64,000 nt of DNA from an uncultured Polynucleobacter sp. (GTDB lineage Bacteria > Bdellovibrionota_B > Oligoflexia > Oligoflexales > RGVZ01): contig CAYOEM010000003.1 of assembly GCA_964402975.1 (NCBI GenBank), positions 21,766 to 85,765 of the forward strand, given 5' to 3'. Every line of letters starts with the position of its first letter. Within the stretch, counting starts at the first letter, position 1. The notes under the pieces are model-generated. The model searched no databases. It was not told where the DNA came from and saw only the letters and a program-made list of their open reading frames with translations. Positions 104-63,698 of this stretch are shown here, piece after piece. The position numbers and the translations under genes were made by a program.

Positions 104-3100
104 GTGAAGGATTTGATTAATTTCTACGACAAACCAAATGATCCTCTAAATTTTAGCGCGATCAAGATTTCGCTTGCGTCTCCAGAGAAGATTCGTAGCT
201 GGTCTTTCGGCGAAGTGAAGAAACCGGAGACAATCAACTATAGAACGTTCAAGCCTGAGCGTGACGGCCTGTTCTGCGCGAAGATTTTTGGTCCGGTTCG
301 TGATTTCGAGTGTATCTGCGGCAAGTATAAGCGCATGAAGCACCGCGGCATCGTTTGCGATAAGTGTGGTGTTGAAGTTATTCACTCGAAGGTACGTCGT
401 GAGCGATTGGGTCACATCAACCTTGCGACTCCAGTGGCTCATATTTGGTTTTTGAAGTCACTGCCTTCGCGCATTGGTGCGATTCTCGATATCCCTTTAA
501 AGGACGTCGAAAGGATTCTTTACAGCGAGTCTTACGTTCTTCTTGAGGCGTCCGAAGAGATTCTCAAGGACAAGGAGCTCAAGAAGGAAATCGGAAGTGT
601 CATCACGGAAGACGAACTTGACGAGATGCTCAAGAAGTATGGCAACAACACCTTCCGCTACGGTGTTGGCGCTGAAGCTCTGCAAGAGCTCTTGGGTAAC
701 CTGCGCGTAGAAGAACTTGCGGATGTGCTTCGCGCGGAGTTGGAAGAAACGACGTCTGAAGCTGGCAAGAAAAAACTTCAAAAAAGACTGAAAGTTGTCG
801 AGGCGTTCAACCAGCTTGACGAGAACGGCGACTTTTATGCTAAGCCGCAGTGGATGATGCTGAACGTTATTCCAGTTCTGCCGCCTGACCTGCGCCCGCT
901 AGTTCCGTTAGATGGTGGTCGATTTGCAACATCAGACTTGAATGACCTCTATCGCCGAGTCATTAACCGTAACAATCGCTTGCTACGTCTTCAGGAGCTA
1001 AACGCGCCTGAGATCATCGTGCGCAACGAAAAACGCATGCTTCAAGAGTCCGTTGATGCTCTGTTTGATAACGGGCGTCGCGGCAAGGTCTTCACTGGTC
1101 CGAACAAGCGTCCCCTGCGGTCTTTATCGGACATGCTTAAAGGTAAGCAAGGTCGTTTCCGTCAAAACCTCTTGGGTAAACGCGTAGACTACTCCGGTCG
1201 TTCCGTAATCGTCGTTGGTCCAGATCTTCGTCTTCATCAGTGCGGTTTGCCAAAGAAAATGGCAATCGAGCTGTTTAAGCCATTCCTGTACAACAAGCTT
1301 GAAGAGCACGGTATCGTCTCGACCATCAAGTCGGCTAAGAAACTGGTAGAAAAAGAGCGTCCTGAGGTTTGGGATTGTCTTGAGGAAGTTTCAAAAGAGC
1401 ACCCAGTCCTTCTAAACCGCGCTCCAACCCTTCACCGTTTAGGTATTCAGGCATTCGAGCCGGTTCTCATCGAGGGTAAGGCGATTCAGCTTCACCCGCT
1501 AGTTTGTTTCGCGTTTAACGCGGACTTCGACGGTGACCAGATGGCGGTTCACGTTCCTCTATCTGTAGAGTCACAGATGGAAGCGCGTGTTCTTATGATG
1601 TCCTCAAATAACATTCTTTCGCCAGCGTCTGGTACGCCGGTGATCGTGCCGACACAGGATATAGTACTTGGTATTTACTACATGACCAAAGATGATATCG
1701 GTGCGCAAGGTGCGGGCAAGGTGTTTGGTTCGATCGAGGAAGTCCGTGCCGCTTACGATCACGATCAAGTCGACCTACAGGCACCAATTACGGTCCGAAT
1801 CGATGGCAAGCGTTGGGAAACAACAGTTGGTCGGGTGATTTTAAGAGAAGTTCTGCCTGAAGGTTTGGACTTTGCTCTGATCAACAAGACGTTGGGCAAA
1901 AAAGATCTTGGCAAGCTTGTTGATGATGCATTCCATAAGTGCGGTCCGAAGGCCACAGTGCTTCTCGCGGACAAGCTGCGTAGCATGGGTTACCGTTATT
2001 CGACGAAAGCCGGTCTATCGATTTCGATCGGGGACATGGTCGTTGCTCCTGGCAAGCAGAAGATGCTTGAGAAGGCGTATGAGGAAGTTAAGAAGATTAA
2101 GGAGCAGTACTCCGAAGGTCTCTTGTCGGATGGTGAGCGTTACAACAAAGTAATCGATATCTGGGCAAAAGTTACAGATAATATCGCGGACGAGATGTTC
2201 AACAACATCAAGTTTATGAAACGCGATGATCACAAAGGGCAGACTCAAACGGTCGCGTCGAACAACTCGATCTACATGATGGCTGACTCTGGAGCTAGGG
2301 GATCTGCTCAGCAGATTCGTCAGTTGGCTGGTATGCGTGGTTTGATGTCAAAACCAAGCGGTGACATCATTGAAACTCCGATCACATCCAACTTCCGCGA
2401 AGGTTTGACGGTTCTTGAGTACTTCACATCGACCCACGGTGCGCGTAAAGGTCTAGCAGATACAGCTCTTAAAACAGCGTCATCTGGATACTTGACTCGC
2501 CGTCTAGTCGACGTTGCACAAGACTCGATCGTGTCCGAGCTTGACTGCGGAACCAAAGAAGGTATCCCAATGGGCCACCTTCGTGAGGGCGCTGAGATTA
2601 AAGAAAAACTTAGTGAGCGTGTACTTGGTCGTGTAGCTCTTGAAGACGTGACAGATCCTGTCAATGGCAAGGTGTTGCTAAAAGCTGGGGACCTCTTTAC
2701 AGAGGATCTATGCAAAGCCGTTGACGCAGCCGGCGTAGAACAAGTCATGATTAGGTCTGTATTGACCTGTCAGTCTGTCCGCGGAAACTGTGCTAAGTGC
2801 TACGGCCGTGACTTGGCAACGGGCAAGATGGTAAACGTTGGTGAAGCTGTCGGTGTTATTGCCGCGCAGTCGATCGGTGAGCCTGGAACCCAGCTGACCA
2901 TGCGTACGTTCCACTTCGGCGGTACGTTCTCCGGTAAAATGGCCCAGAATAAAATCGAGGCTAAATTCTCCGGTAAAATTAAGTTTGAGAATATTCGCGC
3001 AGTGACAAACCGAGATGGTGAGACAATGGTCGTCAGCCGTAATGGTGAGGTTGCCGTTGTGGATGATCACGGTAAGATCAAAGAGACATATCCGGTCAAC

Positions 3101-4234
3101 TTTGGATCGTTCATCAAAGTTAAAGATGGTCAAACGATTCCGGCGGGTCAGGTCATCACAGAATGGGATCCGTTCTCGGTGCCGATTATCTCGGAAGTCG
3201 CTGGTGCAGCTAAGTACAAGGACCTGATCGATGGCCAGTCCATGGAGCAAAAACTCGATGAGCAGACCTTTATCAGTCGTAAGACAGTTATTGAGTCCAA
3301 GGGCTCTGCGCACAAGCCAGCTATCGAAGTCGCTGGTAAACGCTACGCGCTTCCAGTTGGTGCGACGATTAACATCGAAGACGGCGCGGACATTAAGCCA
3401 GGTGACGTTTTAGCTAAGATTCCTCGTGAGGCGCAAAAGACGAAGGACATTACTGGTGGTTTGCCAAGGGTTGCGGAATTGTTTGAAGCGCGTAAGCCAA
3501 AAGAAATGTCAATTATGGCCGACCGTGACGGAACGATCTCCTTTGGTGCTGACACCAAAGGTAAGCGTAAGGTTGTTCTGACCGATGACAATGGCGAACA
3601 AAAAGAGTTTTCGATCTCCAAAGGCAAGCACGTGATCGTCACTGAAGGTGACTACGTTCGCAAAGGTGATCCGCTTGTGGATGGTTCGCCGAACCCACAT
3701 GAGATTCTTGAAGTGCTTGGACGTGTTGCGCTGTCTCGCTTCCTAGTCGATGAGGTTTTGGATGTGTACCGTCTGCAAGGTGTAAAAATTAACACCAAGC
3801 ACATTGAAGTCATCGTTCGACAGATGCTTCGCCGCGTCAAGATTACTGAGGCTGGCGATGCGCGTGGGTTCTTACCAGGCGAACAGGTGGATTTGGGTAT
3901 TGTGGAAGAGGCGAATGCTAAGCTTGTGGCGGAAGGAAAGCGTCCTGCCAAGTTCGAGCCGCTGCTATTGGGTATTACGCGAGCCAGCTTGTCTACAGAT
4001 AGCTTTATCTCTGCGGCATCCTTCCAGGAAACGACGAAGGTCCTCACAGAGGCTAGCATTAACAGTCGGGTCGATAAGTTGCATGGTCTGAAAGAAAACG
4101 TCATCATGGGTCGTCTTATTCCTGCAGGAACAGGTGCTGCAGCTTACCGTGGTCTAAAGGCTATGGTTGCTGGGTCTAAGGGAGTGGTTGCAGGCGACGC
4201 TGGTGAAGTTGCTGGTGAGGCCGTTGCAAGGTAA
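104..4234 (+). CDS. rpoC: DNA-directed RNA polymerase subunit beta'
   Basis: 1376-aa ORF with a GTG start preceded by AAAGGGGAG. The translation has beta' hallmarks: a zinc-binding CxC...CxxC block near the N-terminus, the catalytic NADFDGDQM motif, and trigger-loop/bridge-helix regions. Confidence 0.98.
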
Positions 4235-9578: not shown

Positions 9579-10790
9579 TCACTGGGCTATGGCAACCCTG
9601 AGTTGCAAAACTCCGCCTTCCTTCGTGGCGGCCGGTGCGCCGGTGTCTTTTTTCGTGTCGACAAGATAGCCAGTAGCAATCCCGAAGCGCATGCCGATTT
9701 GCGAGCCAAAATTCAAGACAACAGTCCCTGTTTTAGTTTTGACCGTAGTCACATTGGCTTCCGATCCAGATTTTTCTAGGTCGTACTCATATTGAAACAC
9801 AAATGCGTTTGCTGCGCCTTGAATGCCTGTTTCAAGTAGATGGTAAGTCTTACTCGACTTGCCTGAGGAGGAAAAGTCCTTGTCTGTTTCATGTCCAACG
9901 GAGCCTCCAATGAAAAATCGGTCTGTTAAAGCCAAACGCATCGGAACATCCCAGCGTGTTATCGTGTCATCCTTTTTATTTTGGATTGAGTATTCAAATC
10001 CGAAGTGAGCTGGATAGCCACGGTATTCAAGCCCCACCACTTGAGTGGAGTTTTCAGAGCGCAAGGTAGCTTTTTCTGTACCGGTGCTGCTCTTGGATTC
10101 GACTTTGATATAATCGCGCGCCCAACTGTTTTTCGCGCCGATCCAAATTCCGGGAGCAGCTTGAAGCGAGATGACTGCTCCAAGTTCTGGTATATCAGCG
10201 CCGGACTGATAGGTCGACTTGGCGGTGCTGTTTGATGTGATGACACTGGTTTCGTAGTCCGTGCGGCCCCTAACAAGAATTCCATCGACCTTAAAGAATA
10301 ATTTTTGCGATTTCATGATACTGCCATATGAAACCTTCGTGGCTAAAACTGTAGTTTTCACGTTGAGCTTCGTGCTAATTCCAGCGATCGAGGATTTGAG
10401 TCGCTGTTTGTCTTGCCCGTAGGCTACGTCAAACGATGCGAGAGAATTTTCAAATATTTCGGCGGGTGTCGCTGTTAGCTGTAGCCCATACAGCCAAGTC
10501 GGTGCAGCGTAATATCCCTTTTTAGCTGGATAAAGGTTATCCGTTGGCGTCTCAGAGGCGTTTTGGGCTTGTTCTGTGGTCGTGTCTGTGTCAGTGGCTG
10601 AAGCGTCAGGGGCTGGCGGCTTTTCCACGGCAGGCTTTTTGATTTTGGCTGGTATTTTATTTGGCTTAGAGGCGGCTTTTTTTTGTTTCAGATCGGCCGG
10701 ATTGGGTGAGGTGCTAGTGGTTTCAGTTTCGGCAAGAGACGTTGGGCTGACGAAAACAAGGATCATAAATATCAAGACCTGGTGGAGCAT
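9579..10790 (-). CDS. Secreted / probable outer-membrane beta-barrel protein (paralog B) with a low-complexity N-terminal linker
   Basis: Signal peptide, then a P/K/A/T-rich stretch, then a region alignable by eye with 8498-9505 (for example FVFQYEYDLEKSG...TKTGTVVLNFG vs FKFEYDINKSG...TKTGYFEMAFG; both end in ..AQ). Confidence 0.6.
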   Translation of the reverse strand: MLHQVLIFMILVFVSPTSLAETETTSTSPNPADLKQKKAASKPNKIPAKIKKPAVEKPPAPDASATDTDTTTEQAQNASETPTDNLYPAKKGYYAAPTWLYGLQLTATPAEIFENSLASFDVAYGQDKQRLKSSIAGISTKLNVKTTVLATKVSYGSIMKSQKLFFKVDGILVRGRTDYETSVITSNSTAKSTYQSGADIPELGAVISLQAAPGIWIGAKNSWARDYIKVESKSSTGTEKATLRSENSTQVVGLEYRGYPAHFGFEYSIQNKKDDTITRWDVPMRLALTDRFFIGGSVGHETDKDFSSSGKSSKTYHLLETGIQGAANAFVFQYEYDLEKSGSEANVTTVKTKTGTVVLNFGSQIGMRFGIATGYLVDTKKDTGAPAATKEGGVLQLRVAIAQ

Positions 10791-14170: not shown

Positions 14171-14247
14171 TGGTGGGGAAGCACAGACTCGAACTGTGGA
14201 CTTCCTGCTTGTAAGGCAGGCGCTCTAACCAACTGAGCTACATCCCC
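14171..14247 (-). tRNA. tRNA-Val (anticodon UAC)
   Basis: The reverse complement reads GGGGATG-TA-GCTC-AGTTGGTTA-GAGC-G-CCTGC-CTTACAA-GCAGG-AAGTC-CACAG-TTCGAGT-CTGTG-CTTCCCC-A-CCA. There is one U-U mismatch in the acceptor stem, and CCA is encoded. Confidence 0.9.
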
Positions 14248-31888: not shown

Positions 31889-32086
31889 ATGGATAACATG
31901 GAACAAGGAGCAGCCGTGGCTAAGAAAGCAACAAGAAAAAAAGCAACGAAGAAAAAAGCAGCTAAAAAAGCGACAAAAAAAGCTACTCGCAAAGCACCTA
32001 AAAAGGCTGCTAAAAAAGCGACGAAAAAAGCTACTCGTAAAAAAGCTGCTAAAAAAGCAACTAAGAAGGCTTCCAAGAAGAAGTAA
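31889..32086 (+). CDS. Histone H1-like Lys/Ala-rich nucleoid-associated protein (65 aa)
   Basis: AGGAGGAG Shine-Dalgarno lies 8-9 nt upstream of the ATG. The translation is (A/T)KKA-type repeats. A strong terminator follows 45 nt downstream. Repeat copies differ only at synonymous positions. Confidence 0.75.
   Translation: MDNMEQGAAVAKKATRKKATKKKAAKKATKKATRKAPKKAAKKATKKATRKKAAKKATKKASKKK
31958..32071 (+). repeat. In-frame tandem DNA repeat inside the H1-like gene
   Basis: The 36-nt blocks at 31958-31993 and 32006-32041 (GC[A/T]GCTAAAAAAGCGAC[A/G]AAAAAAGCTACTCG[C/T]AAA) differ at 3 third-codon positions only. Both encode AAKKATKKATRK. A third, degenerate copy starts near 32045. Confidence 0.7.
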
Positions 32087-32291: not shown

Positions 32292-34430
32292 GTGGAGTCT
32301 GTTGTCGGTATTATTACCCTGTGCGGTGTTCTGGCGCTCGTTGTGGCAGCGTATTTTGCCGTCCGGGTCAACTCTTTGAAGCTAACGGCCGCCGAGGTCA
32401 ATGCCTCTGAGGACGTTGTTGCGCGTTTGAGAGAGATTTCGGGAGCGATTTCCGAGGGCGCCATGGCTTTCTTAGCCCAGGAATACAAATTCGTGGGTGT
32501 TTTTGCAGCCGCCTTTGCTGTAGTGATCGCGCTTGCTCTGGATAATCCCGAAACTGCCGCCGTAAACGAGGGACTTTACAGTGCTGTCGCCTTCGTTCTT
32601 GGGGCCTTGATCTCAAGTGTATGTGCCTTTATGGGGATGAAAATTGCCACCCAAGGTAACGTTCGAACTGCCGTAGCCGCTCGTCGAAGCATCACAGACG
32701 CATTTAGGGTCGCATTTCGATCCGGCGCCGTGATGGGTTTTGGTCTTACGGGTTTGGCCGTTCTTGGGCTTTTGGCCGTGGTAGTGGTTTTTGATTCCAT
32801 GCTGGCGAATTCCGGCATTGAGAAACACTATATTATGGAGATGGTTGCTGGCTTCGGTCTCGGTGGATCCACAGTCGCCCTTTTTGGACGGGTGGGTGGT
32901 GGTATTTACACCAAAGCAGCCGATGTTGGAGCTGACTTGGTTGGTAAGGTTGAAGCTGGTATCCCTGAAGATGATCCACGGAACCCGGCGGTCATTGCCG
33001 ATAACGTCGGCGATAACGTGGGTGACATCGCTGGCATGGGTGCCGACCTTTTCGGTTCATGTGCCGAGGCCACTTGCGCTGCGTTGGTGATTGGTGCCAC
33101 GTCGGCGGCCCTTGCGGGTAATCTTAACGCCTTGCTCTATCCGCTACTGATTAGTGCCATCGGAATTCCGGTTTGTCTGATTACCGCGTTTTTTGCCAGA
33201 TTAAAACCAGATGCCAAGCAGGTAGAGCCTACTCTAAGGGGTCAGCTCATTATCTCGACGGTTCTCATGTCGATTGCCATGTATTTCGCGACTAAGTACC
33301 TGATGCTTGACTCCTTCACCATTGGTGAGGTCGAAATTACTAACGACAAAGTGTTGTACTCGGTACTGGCTGGCCTTTGGTCAGGAATGGTGATTGGCTA
33401 TATGACGGAAGTGTACACGTCGCATGGCTTCAAACACGTACGTCGGCTTGCACAGGCATCAGATAAGGGTCCGGCGATCAATATCATTTACGGTCTATCG
33501 CTAGGCTATGAGTCGGCGGTTGTGCCGGTCGTAGCTATAGCTGTAACTGTTTATATTGCTTGGACGTTGGCCGGCATGTACGGCATCGCATTGTCTGCAA
33601 TCGGTATGATTTCCACAATTGCCACTGGTCTTACGATAGATGCATATGGACCGGTCTCCGATAATGCAGGTGGCATCGCGGAGATGGCGGAGCTCGGTAA
33701 AGACATCCGCGAGAGAACAGATCTCCTTGACGCTGCAGGTAATACAACCGCCGCAATCGGGAAGGGTTTTGCCATTGGTTCGGCTGTATTGACGGCTCTA
33801 GCACTTTTCGCTGCGTTCCTTACGAGAGCTCAATTTGAGTCTCTGAACATGCTATCTCCCATGGTTTTTGCCGGTCTATTTGTGGGAGGGGTCTTGCCAT
33901 TCCTATTCACCGCCCAAACCATGCTAGCTGTGGGCCGTGCTGCAGAGGGTATGATCCACGAGGTGCGACGTCAGTTCCGCGAGATTCCTGGTCTTTTGGA
34001 GGGTAAAGCCCGCCCGGATTACCGAAGCTGTGTGGCGATATCCACCAATTCAGCTCTCAAAGAGATGATTGCACCTGCAATTTTGGTGATTGCATCTCCT
34101 ATCGTCATTGGTGTTGTCTTTGGCGTCGAAGCGCTGGCCGGTGTTTTGGCTGGATCAATGGTGTCTGGAATCGTGATGGCTCTATCCACGTCCAACTCTG
34201 GTGGCGGCTGGGATAACGCCAAGAAGTACATTGAAAAACACGAGGGTAAGGGCACCGACAAGCATAAAGCTGCAGTCGTGGGTGACACCGTTGGTGATCC
34301 GTTCAAGGATACCTCTGGTCCGTCTCTGAATATCCTGATGAAGCTTATGGCCATCATCAGCCTCGTATTTGTTCCGTTTTTCCAGAACGCTCACGAATGG
34401 TTGATGGGTGTACTTGGAATAGGACAATAA
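32292..34430 (+). CDS. hppA: Membrane-integral ion-translocating pyrophosphatase (K+-dependent sequence type)
   Basis: 712 aa and polytopic. GTG start with AGGAGG upstream. Motifs [26 protein letters not shown] and DTVGDPFKD are present. Confidence 0.95.
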
Positions 34431-60878: not shown

Positions 60879-61235
60879 ATGGCAACCACGCTTCGTATGC
60901 AACGTCACGGTAACACTCACCGTCCCTTCTATCACATTGTCGCGGCCAACAGTCGCGCATCAGCAACCAAGAAATTCTTGGAAAAGGTCGGCTACTACGA
61001 TGCGTCAACTGAGCCGTCGACGTTCGTTGTAGACGAGGCGCGCGTTCGTTACTGGTATGGTATCGGCGCGACCATGAGCAATACTCTCCGCGTTTTGCTT
61101 AACAAAAAAGGCATCAAGCTGGAGCGCGCAAAGACCACTGCACCGACCGGAGCAAAAGCAAAAAAGCCGAAGGCAGCTAAGACTCCAAAGGCCGCAAAAG
61201 CTCCCAAAGCGGCAACCAAAAAAACGACGAAGTGA
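60879..61235 (+). CDS. rpsP: 30S ribosomal protein S16 with a Lys/Ala-rich C-terminal tail
   Basis: MATTLRMQRHGNTHRPFYHIVAA.SR..ATKKFLEKVGYYD. The ATG at 60879 has GGAGGA 4-9 nt upstream. The tail is AKAKKPKAAKTPKAAKAPKAATKKTTK. Confidence 0.95.
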   Translation: MATTLRMQRHGNTHRPFYHIVAANSRASATKKFLEKVGYYDASTEPSTFVVDEARVRYWYGIGATMSNTLRVLLNKKGIKLERAKTTAPTGAKAKKPKAAKTPKAAKAPKAATKKTTK

Positions 61236-62481: not shown

Positions 62482-62847
62482 TCAATACTGATTGGTTTGA
62501 AGCAGAACAAGGGTGCATGCGTCGATGGTGTCGATGGCGTTGGCTTTCAGTACTCTCGATAATCTTGGGTTTTCGGCTCCAGGATTAAAGATCACTCTTT
62601 TGGGTTTGAGCTTCAGAAACTCCTCCGCTAATCGATCACTAATACTTGCACTAACATAGACCGTGACGGTGTCAACAGGCTGTTTGACCTCAGTCATTGA
62701 TTGGCTGACGGGAATACCGTCGACAGAGTTTAACGAAGGGTGCACCAGCACAACGTCGTGGCCATGCTGCAAGAGCATTCTAAGGGCTTTGTGAGAGTAT
62801 CGGTCTGTTTTGTCAGAAGCGCCGAGAATTAACGTGGTCATAGTCAC
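62482..62847 (-). CDS. CoA-binding domain protein (YccU-like)
   Basis: ILGASDKTDRYSHKALRMLLQHGHDVVLVHP and VIFNPGAEN. Its stop lies 1 nt from the trmD stop (convergent). Confidence 0.8.
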   Translation of the reverse strand: MTMTTLILGASDKTDRYSHKALRMLLQHGHDVVLVHPSLNSVDGIPVSQSMTEVKQPVDTVTVYVSASISDRLAEEFLKLKPKRVIFNPGAENPRLSRVLKANAIDTIDACTLVLLQTNQY

Positions 62848-62952
62848 TCACCTTTTTGAAACGTCTTAACAGTTGACAGTTTGTCGGCAAATGGGGAACC
62901 TTGTTGGCCCTGGAGATAATGTATCTCACCAACAACCGAGGAGTCTACCGAG

Positions 62953-63636
62953 ATGGCAACCAAAAAAGCGACCGCAAAAAAAGCAAAAAATACAAAAAAA
63001 ACCAAAGTGAAACCGACTACAAAGTCTACGAAAAAATCAGCGAAAAAAGCACCCGCAAAATCGTTAAAAAAAGCCACTAAGTCCGTGGCCAAGAAAAAAC
63101 CAACAGGTATGAAGGCGAAAAAAGTAACCCGAAAGACAGCAGGTGCATCTAAAGCGAAAAAAGCAGGCAAAATGCCAGTGGTCGGGCATTTAGCTCCTGA
63201 TTTTGCCTTGCAGAGTGACGTCAACGGCACGGTCAGCCTGTCTCGTTACCGCGGCAAGAACGTGGTTTTATACTTCTACCCCAAGGATGACACTCCTGGT
63301 TGCACGCGCGAGGCTTGTTCTTTTCAGGAACATAAACCTAAGCTAATAGGTCAAAACGCCGTCGTTATTGGTGTCAGTCCAGACGGTCCAGAAAGTCATA
63401 AGAAGTTTAGGGCTAAGTACGGCCTTGATTTCGTCCTTATTTCTGACGAGGAACGAGAGCTCTGCAAAGCCTACGGTGTCTGGGTTGAAAAAAACAATTA
63501 CGGCAAAAAATATATGGGTGTGCAGCGCGCGACATTTCTTATCGACGGGCAAGGCCGCGTGGCTTACGTCTGGCCAAAAGTTTCAGTTGACGGGCATACC
63601 GAGGAAGTATTAACCGAGTTGTCCAGGTTGAATTAG
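62953..63636 (+). CDS. bcp: Thioredoxin-dependent peroxiredoxin Bcp with a 73-aa histone-H1-like Lys/Ala-rich N-terminal extension
   Basis: The Bcp core is APDFAL....G..V.LS.YRGK.VVLYFYPKDDTPGCTREAC.F. The in-frame upstream 73 codons encode KKA/KKT repeats, with GAGGAG 9 nt before the ATG at 62953. An internal ATG at 63172 (MPVVGHLAPDF) would give a canonical-length Bcp. Confidence 0.85.
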   Translation: MATKKATAKKAKNTKKTKVKPTTKSTKKSAKKAPAKSLKKATKSVAKKKPTGMKAKKVTRKTAGASKAKKAGKMPVVGHLAPDFALQSDVNGTVSLSRYRGKNVVLYFYPKDDTPGCTREACSFQEHKPKLIGQNAVVIGVSPDGPESHKKFRAKYGLDFVLISDEERELCKAYGVWVEKNNYGKKYMGVQRATFLIDGQGRVAYVWPKVSVDGHTEEVLTELSRLN

Positions 63637-63654
63637 TCCGTTTTTGCCCACTAG

Positions 63655-63698
63655 AACCATCTTTCAGCTAACGATTGCTGGAAGATGGTTTTGTTTTT
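63655..63698 (+). terminator. Rho-independent terminator of bcp
   Basis: AACCATCTTTCAGC-(8-nt loop)-GCTGGAAGATGGTT forms a 14-bp stem (one G-U pair), followed by TTGTTTTT. Confidence 0.75.

Follow-up and report, generated by a model that had tools for sequence, protein, structure and literature searches.

The window (the whole 64,000-nucleotide (nt) stretch of DNA analysed here) carries on its plus strand, at 62953..63636, an open reading frame (ORF) whose 227-amino-acid (aa) product joins a polybasic N-terminal tail to a Bcp/PrxQ peroxiredoxin core in one frame. Comparison with orthologs confirms an in-frame fusion that is read from the distal ATG at 62953 and maintained by selection, and we regard it as probable, though well short of certain, that one polypeptide begins at this ATG and that its polycationic tail tethers the peroxidase, likeliest to nucleoid DNA. 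The initial annotation of this DNA had counted 73 in-frame tail codons ahead of the Bcp core, placed a GAGGAG 9 nt before the first ATG and noted an internal ATG at 63172 that would give a Bcp of ordinary length. The codon count is exactly as stated, the hexamer lies at 62938-62943, and the internal ATG is present, its Met74 occupying the Met1 position of ordinary Bcp proteins. ATG 62953 is the earliest start codon past the in-frame stop; the 11 codons 5' of it are open, and the frame holds no further start codon upstream of it.

Translation of the tail

The ortholog set comprised five syntenic loci (L081-L086, with L082 and L083 duplicating L081), whose shared gene order is rpsP-rimM-trmD-(CoA-binding, minus strand)-bcp-DUF676-(methyltransferase, minus strand)-ligA, together with L001 and L002, which come from species-representative metagenome-assembled genomes (MAGs) and have core identities of 81% and 75%. 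The initial annotation had proposed aligning Bcp orthologs as a check on the tail, and in this alignment the tail is kept, every difference in tail length is a multiple of three, so that the indels are all in frame, and a Shine-Dalgarno (SD) sequence precedes the distal ATG in 7/7 loci. That position keeps GAGGAG, TAGGAG or AAGGAG, with anti-SD duplexes of -6.4 to -8.4 kcal/mol. Across the same 7 loci the internal ATG is preceded by no conserved motif and by anti-SD duplexes of -0.1 to -4.7 kcal/mol, the window itself having a weak AGCAGG (-4.7 kcal/mol) and the distant orthologs -0.1 to -3.2 kcal/mol. Among pairs with an unsaturated synonymous rate (dS), the ratio of nonsynonymous to synonymous rates (dN/dS) was 0.17-0.33 in the tail versus about 0.03 in the core. 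Met74 is kept by every member of the window's clade (P0001-P0046), and in at least 20 other tailed homologs the junction Met is replaced or lost (Leu, Ile or nothing).

The initial annotation had also argued from the absence of stop codons in the tail frame, on the ground that stops are easy to generate in such DNA. The frame is indeed open, but the ease of generating stops there is overstated: the tail DNA contains 9% T, and 4.1% of its mononucleotide shuffles and 4.8% of its dinucleotide shuffles are stop-free in frame (P about 0.04-0.05). Because the tail DNA is T-poor, the open frame by itself lies only marginally beyond chance, and the decisive support is comparative. An antisense ORF of 128 aa (62844..63230, minus strand), Phe-rich, overlaps the tail, and its frame is stop-free in all 7 orthologs because the tail has no Tyr, His or Gln codons. 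We rejected it as a true gene, since the sense frame has the SD, continuity with Bcp and purifying selection; its openness is a shadow of the tail composition, by which gene callers might be led astray.

The sole near-identical 'tail-less' homolog, P0014 (154 aa), belongs to a gene that begins at base 7 of its contig, and it was rejected as evidence of a short form because it is a contig-end truncation. Assembly breaks inside the low-complexity tail evidently produced this spurious 'tail-less' entry and probably a second one, P0049. In the locus L087 (JGI Ga0480364_0000553, bases 1-471) the contig end lies 6 bases upstream of the Bcp internal Met. Tailed Bcp proteins are likely to be under-annotated, with contig-end truncation (as for P0014) and the antisense shadow ORF misleading assemblers and gene callers.

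Composition of the tail and selection on its charge

Residues 1-73 include 29 K, 14 A, 11 T, 5 S and 1 R and not a single D or E (K 40%, A 19%, T 15%; net charge about +30), and the isoelectric point is 11.84 for the tail versus 7.71 for the core (residues 74-227). AlphaFold2, run on a 37-sequence alignment, gave residues 1-70 a per-residue confidence (predicted local distance difference test, pLDDT) of about 50 without secondary structure, versus >90 for the core, and the tail is predicted to be intrinsically disordered. A tandem-repeat search of the tail DNA returned only a trivial 9-nt x 3 array (GCAAAAAAA, 62974-63000); the tail is compositionally biased, not a regular repeat. When the 73 aa of the tail were used alone as a query, 488 word-sharing candidates were retrieved, none at E <= 0.001. 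A signal peptide, and with it secretion, was ruled out by inspection, the basic N-terminus being followed by no hydrophobic segment.

A set of 96 homologous tails (6326 residues) has a like composition, with K 38%, A 19%, T 11%, S 9%, V 8% and P 5%. Acidic residues (D+E) account for 0.8% of these tails versus 12.3% of the attached cores, 61/96 tails are acid-free, net charge runs from +4 to +52 (median +27), and aromatic residues number 5 among the 6326. A Lys-to-Glu change takes only a single transition, and the near absence of acidic residues therefore points to selection on charge. The tail is found throughout the clade, in members with core identities as low as 63%, and is conserved for charge and composition, not for sequence. 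Between L081 and L084, identity is 94-97% in flanks and core and 71-84% in the tail (62953..63152 region), and dS is 0.83 in the tail versus 0.28 in the core; the window tail is 86-90% identical to the L081 tail, versus about 80% for the flanks. On these comparisons the tail behaves as a hypervariable cassette, probably exchanged by recombination.

The peroxiredoxin core

Pfam assigns aa 77-205 to AhpC-TSA (PF00578; 140.7 bits against a cut-off of 26, E 3e-41) with a further match to Redoxin (E 6e-21), and the Pfam search of the window protein returned no domain besides these two. The NCBIfam models for PrxQ and for thioredoxin-dependent thiol peroxidase align to aa 77-224 and miss their equivalog cut-offs (NF006960, 137.3 vs 140 bits; NF053650, 161 vs 260), so that Pfam and the motifs make the protein a member of the family, while it is no equivalog of the proteins curated for E. 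coli or Deinococcus. The active-site motif PxxxTxxC reads P110-K-D-D-T114-P-G-C117; P110, T114, C117, C122 and R192 are invariant in 37 aligned homologs, and a Cys five residues past the peroxidatic cysteine (CP+5) is found in 120/150 of the nearest cluster representatives. The AlphaFold2 core has a beta-alpha thioredoxin-like topology. Among solved structures, bacterial Bcp proteins come closest to it (5enu at 1.6e-35, followed by the Xanthomonas 5iiz/3gkk series), the yeast nuclear Dot5 (2a4v) matches at E 9e-15, and residues 1-71 are covered by no solved chain among the PDB matches. The core is thus an intact, ordinary atypical 2-Cys Bcp/PrxQ. It shares the PxxxTxxC motif, the CP+5 Cys and the Arg with canonical Bcp/PrxQ (E. 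coli; Xanthomonas campestris 3gkk/5iiz; Burkholderia 5enu) and matches the solved Bcp structures at E-values of 1e-32 to 1e-35; unlike the window protein, the canonical proteins are 150-163 aa long and have no extension.

Distribution and origin of basic tails

The gene is no isolated case, for many of the related Bcp clusters bear such tails. As a full-length query favours tailed matches, the core alone (residues 74-227) was searched against 1.84 billion cluster representatives at 50% identity, and a basic tail was scored where at least 15 aa had K+R >=25% and D+E <=6%. Tails of 28-196 aa were present on 55/150 of the nearest Bcp cluster representatives (37 N-terminal, 17 C-terminal, 1 at both ends), a share of 37% that overstates the share among genomes because fast-evolving tails split families into extra clusters. 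With the full-length query the best matches were 183-283-aa Bcp proteins with basic extensions, and an N-terminal basic tail was present in 88 and a C-terminal one in 8 of the 120 best matches. The 80 best loci from species-representative genomes include N-terminal tails in L001, L002 and a Rhodobacterales MAG (L065) and C-terminal tails in Archangium (L004, L017) and Myxococcus llanfairpwllgwyngyll... Database labels of the tailed proteins are simply 'peroxiredoxin Q/BCP'.

The Myxococcus locus (L011, NZ_VIFM01000019.1) encodes a 394-aa Bcp ORF with a C-terminal extension of about 230 aa, made up of an acidic/Pro-rich linker and then roughly 150 aa of AKK/PAKK repeats. This order of peroxiredoxin, acidic region and Lys-rich tail resembles that of Plasmodium PfnPrx, a chromatin-associated peroxiredoxin discussed below.

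A neighbour-joining (NJ) tree of the cores, which is rough and indicative only, contains one large clade whose complete members all have N-terminal tails; outside it, lineages with a tail lie dispersed among those without, and the Archangium group with its C-terminal tails stands apart. Because of this scatter and the separate position of the Archangium group, the tails appear to have been gained several times independently, at either terminus. Myxococcota tails have a G+C content (GC) of 68-71% and use only AAG for Lys, whereas those of the window's relatives use AAA at 35-42% GC, and the selected property is therefore one of the protein and not of an A-rich mRNA. An A-rich leader acting as a translation enhancer at the nucleic-acid level was rejected, since the Myxococcota tails are GC-rich, AAG-only and C-terminal. 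The family offers a clean natural case of a disordered region that is kept for composition and charge, is free in sequence, and has been regained at either terminus in genomes of differing GC.

Proposed function and alternative explanations

In the mechanism that we propose, Cys117 would be oxidised to sulfenic acid by H2O2 or an organic hydroperoxide, an intramolecular Cys117-Cys122 disulfide would form, and thioredoxin would reduce that disulfide, as is expected of the family. The tail would bind polyanions electrostatically and without sequence specificity; its likeliest target, by analogy, would be chromosomal DNA in the nucleoid, where tethering would concentrate the peroxidase at the site at which peroxide-driven Fenton damage matters most. 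The nearest analogues of such tethering are Dps with its Lys-rich tails and the chromatin-bound PfnPrx. We infer DNA or nucleoid binding by the tail from its composition and from analogy with characterised proteins. DNA is plausible as the ligand because a free-standing 65-aa protein encoded elsewhere in this genome has the identical composition, because eight homologs (P0022, P0024, P0026, P0027, P0029, P0054, P0055 and P0086) have precomputed matches to HC2 (PF07382), the Pfam family of histone H1-like nucleoproteins, because Ku, Hlp and HU owe their DNA binding, or its modulation, to low-complexity tails rich in Lys (PMC3553676), and because PfnPrx is chromatin-bound and Dps binds DNA via disordered terminal tails (the latter according to PMC13319912). 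In CarD of myxobacteria, moreover, an H1-like domain stands in for the HMGA domain that binds DNA (Garcia-Heras et al. 2009, cited by PMC2919716).

Several observations weigh against nucleoid tethering. The window protein itself gave no match to HC2 even at E <= 1; of the initial description of the tail as histone-H1-like, the Lys/Ala-rich, acid-free and predicted disordered composition stands and a profile match is missing, and the likeness to H1 lies in composition, not in homology. The hypervariability of the tail between near-identical strains fits a relaxed, composition-only constraint. Polybasic tails are, moreover, not diagnostic of DNA binding, because a like-composed tail is found on ribosomal protein S16 of the same genome, implying RNA contact, and the H1-like KPAA tail of AlgP localises to polyphosphate granules (PMC9239181). 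These two tails, and the lack of sequence specificity of the Bcp tail, favour the alternative that the tail is translated and functional but has rRNA or ribosomes, mRNA or polyphosphate granules as its partner in vivo, possibly via coacervation, in which case the peroxidase would sit on ribosomes or polyphosphate bodies and not on the nucleoid. We consider this rather unlikely, as the characterised bacterial K/A-rich tails (HU/Hlp, Ku, CarD) act on DNA (PMC3553676; for CarD, Garcia-Heras et al. 2009 as cited in PMC2919716) and the sole peroxiredoxin characterised with a tail of this kind is bound to chromatin (PMC3064226).

The tail could also be a tolerated, essentially neutral low-complexity expansion in a lineage prone to K-rich repeats, a view suited to its strongly variable length (16-196 aa) and sequence, to its divergence between near-identical strains and to the further K/A/T-rich segments in the same 64 kb. 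Such neutrality is improbable, given that the tail dN/dS is <1, that acidic residues one mutation away from Lys are almost wholly excluded, that the tail is kept across a clade with saturated synonymous sites, and that N- and C-terminal tails were gained independently in genomes of 47% and 70% GC. Attachment of Bcp to the cytoplasmic membrane, on whose anionic inner face it would reduce lipid hydroperoxides, strikes us as distinctly improbable. The window tail is very hydrophilic (mean Eisenberg hydrophobicity -0.44), is interrupted by prolines, has a low hydrophobic moment (0.51 for the best 18-residue segment) and carries neither a lipid anchor nor a hydrophobic segment, and aromatic residues are nearly absent; against this stand the ability of Bcp/PrxQ proteins to reduce organic and fatty-acid hydroperoxides, the preference of some Bcp for lipid hydroperoxides, and the possible folding of some ortholog tails (KKAVKKAVKKAVKKVVKK of L002, for example) into amphipathic helices. 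Least probable of all is a tail that is unmade or rare because translation starts mainly at ATG 63172 to give a 154-aa Bcp, or gives both isoforms: the retention of Met74 throughout the window's clade, the weak AGCAGG before it and the general capacity of A-rich, unstructured mRNA for SD-independent initiation would allow it, but a tail that is under purifying selection, varies by in-frame indels and conserves its charge must be translated, the strong SD conserved in every locus stands at the distal ATG and not at the internal one, and the junction Met is dispensed with in other tailed homologs, so that second initiation at Met74, and hence two isoforms, is possible but unsupported.

Extending nucleoid tethering beyond the window, we suggest, tentatively and with less than even confidence, that the tailed proteins form a widespread, unrecognised and convergent class of nucleoid-tethered bacterial peroxiredoxins whose hypervariable, recombining tail tunes affinity, with the tail at the N-terminus in Oligoflexia/Bdellovibrionota and several further lineages and at the C-terminus in Myxococcota. 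On this view bacteria would routinely keep a thiol peroxidase on the chromosome itself, and the class would answer to Plasmodium PfnPrx on the bacterial side and parallel Dps in function. Should the tail indeed hold Bcp at the nucleoid, many bacteria would organise the removal of peroxide spatially on the chromosome by the simplest of devices, a disordered tail acting through charge only, and Bcp, a ubiquitous enzyme with an unsettled physiological role, would gain a concrete job in these lineages, namely local protection of DNA. Cultured carriers, the Archangium and Myxococcus species with C-terminal tails, make the idea testable.

Relation to known systems

The initial annotation had not recognised a DNA-binding tail on a thiol peroxidase as a described architecture. 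Plasmodium PfnPrx and the BCP of Coxiella are precedents for a peroxiredoxin at DNA, and the claim holds for the bacterial Bcp/Lys-tail fusion, which is undescribed in the literature found: a search for bacterial peroxiredoxins, Bcp included, that carry a lysine-rich or H1-like tail brought up the Plasmodium case and general analogues and nothing else, and a paper on Bdellovibrio histones mentions neither H1-like proteins nor peroxiredoxin. What is new is the bacterial fusion, widespread and convergent; a chromatin peroxiredoxin that uses a Lys-rich tail is already published for Plasmodium.

PfnPrx (MCP1) of Plasmodium falciparum combines an AhpC-TSA domain with a lysine-rich C-terminal tail and was located genome-wide on chromatin by chromatin immunoprecipitation sequencing (ChIP-seq); its authors liken the tail to the C-terminal domain of histone H1 and propose binding to the DNA backbone and protection of the genome (PMC3064226). 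It resembles the window protein in the AhpC-TSA domain, which was aligned there with yeast Dot5, and in the strongly positive lysine-rich tail. It differs in being eukaryotic, in carrying its tail at the C-terminus after an acidic Glu-rich middle and in its nucleosomal context; its tail is an independent fusion without homology to the window tail, and tail-DNA binding is a proposal there as well.

Dps, too, is an antioxidant protein, and a flexible and disordered tail rich in Lys, at its N- or C-terminus, holds it at the nucleoid (PMC13319912). The likeness would be functional, since Dps is a ferritin-like dodecamer of four-helix bundles with ferroxidase activity, unrelated in fold and chemistry, and its tails are short (about 10-30 aa) and made multivalent by 12 subunits, whereas the window protein would have one long tail on a peroxiredoxin that is probably monomeric. 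H1-like or PAKKA tails (Chlamydia Hc1/Hc2, Pseudomonas AlgP, mycobacterial Hlp/HupB and Ku, Deinococcus HU, the H1-like domain of myxobacterial CarD) have the same K/A/P/T-rich composition as the Bcp tail, and tails of this type are rapidly evolving low-complexity appendages that evolved repeatedly (PMC3553676; PMC9239181). In those proteins the partner domain is itself DNA-binding or of the nucleoid, whereas in the window protein it is a redox enzyme.

The BCP of Coxiella burnetii has been presented as a DNA-binding peroxiredoxin that acts against oxidative stress (Hicks et al. 2010, as cited in PMC4416765 and PMC8945050). As in our proposal, a bacterial Bcp would act at DNA. This protein is of ordinary Bcp length and is not known to have a polylysine tail, and its core would do the binding. 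Saccharomyces cerevisiae Dot5/nTPx (2a4v) belongs to the same peroxiredoxin subfamily as the window core and is located in the compartment that holds the genome; unlike the window protein it is eukaryotic, depends on nuclear import and has no polybasic DNA-binding tail.

Locus features and genome context

Table 1. Positions of the bcp features and of other genes in the window
Feature	Position	Strand	Basis or remark
Shine-Dalgarno GAGGAG	62938..62943	+	9 nt before ATG 62953; anti-SD duplex -8.4 kcal/mol
N-terminal polybasic tail, predicted disordered, aa 1-73	62953..63171	+	composition, AlphaFold2, ortholog comparison
Internal ATG, Met74	63172..63174	+	aligned with the start codon of tail-less Bcp proteins
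Bcp/PrxQ core, aa 74-227, and stop codon	63172..63636	+	Pfam, NCBIfam and PDB matches; core pLDDT
Cys117 codon, putative peroxidatic, in PKDDTPGC motif	63301..63303	+	sequence and 37-sequence alignment
Cys122 codon, putative resolving, CP+5	63316..63318	+	invariant in alignment
Intrinsic-terminator-like hairpin and T-run	63652..63693	+	16 nt past stop; 17-pair stem then TTTTT (terminator scan)
fusA, EF-G, 692 aa	5398..7476		
Two tRNA-Val genes, GAC and TAC anticodons	10953..11029, 14171..14247		
Stand-alone 65-aa KKA/KKAT-repeat protein	31889..32086	+	K 42%, A 28%, T 11% (ORF and K-rich scan)
rpsP, ribosomal protein S16	60879..61235	+	C-terminal K/A/T/P-rich tail of about 33 aa at 61134..61232, AKAKKPKAAKTPKAAKAPKAATKKTTK

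A scan of the 105-nt spacer 5' of bcp found no sigma-70-like promoter, a result that is uninformative for this phylum. The GC of the window is 48%. RpoC (104..4234, 1376 aa) is 72-74% identical to sequences from Pseudobacteriovorax, Oligoflexus, Oligoflexales and a 'Bdellovibrionota bacterium', its closest matches being metagenomic, and because of these identities the window was assigned to an uncultured member of Oligoflexia (Bdellovibrionota).

The gene for the 65-aa KKA protein has AGGAGGAG as an SD on its 5' side and a hairpin with a T-run on its 3' side, and an H+-pyrophosphatase gene (32292..34430) lies just downstream. A Pfam search of the protein gave no match; it is probably a histone-H1-like nucleoid protein of this Oligoflexia lineage. 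In the rpsP ORF as listed, Pfam Ribosomal_S16 spans only aa 15-73, and four related loci from metagenomes (L081, L084, L085 and L086) conserve the S16 tail. K-rich tails recur in this lineage's proteins beyond Bcp. A 403-aa ORF on the minus strand (9579..10790), without a Pfam match, has a K/P-rich low-complexity stretch, KQKKAASKPNKIPAKIKKPAVEKPP, near its N-terminus.

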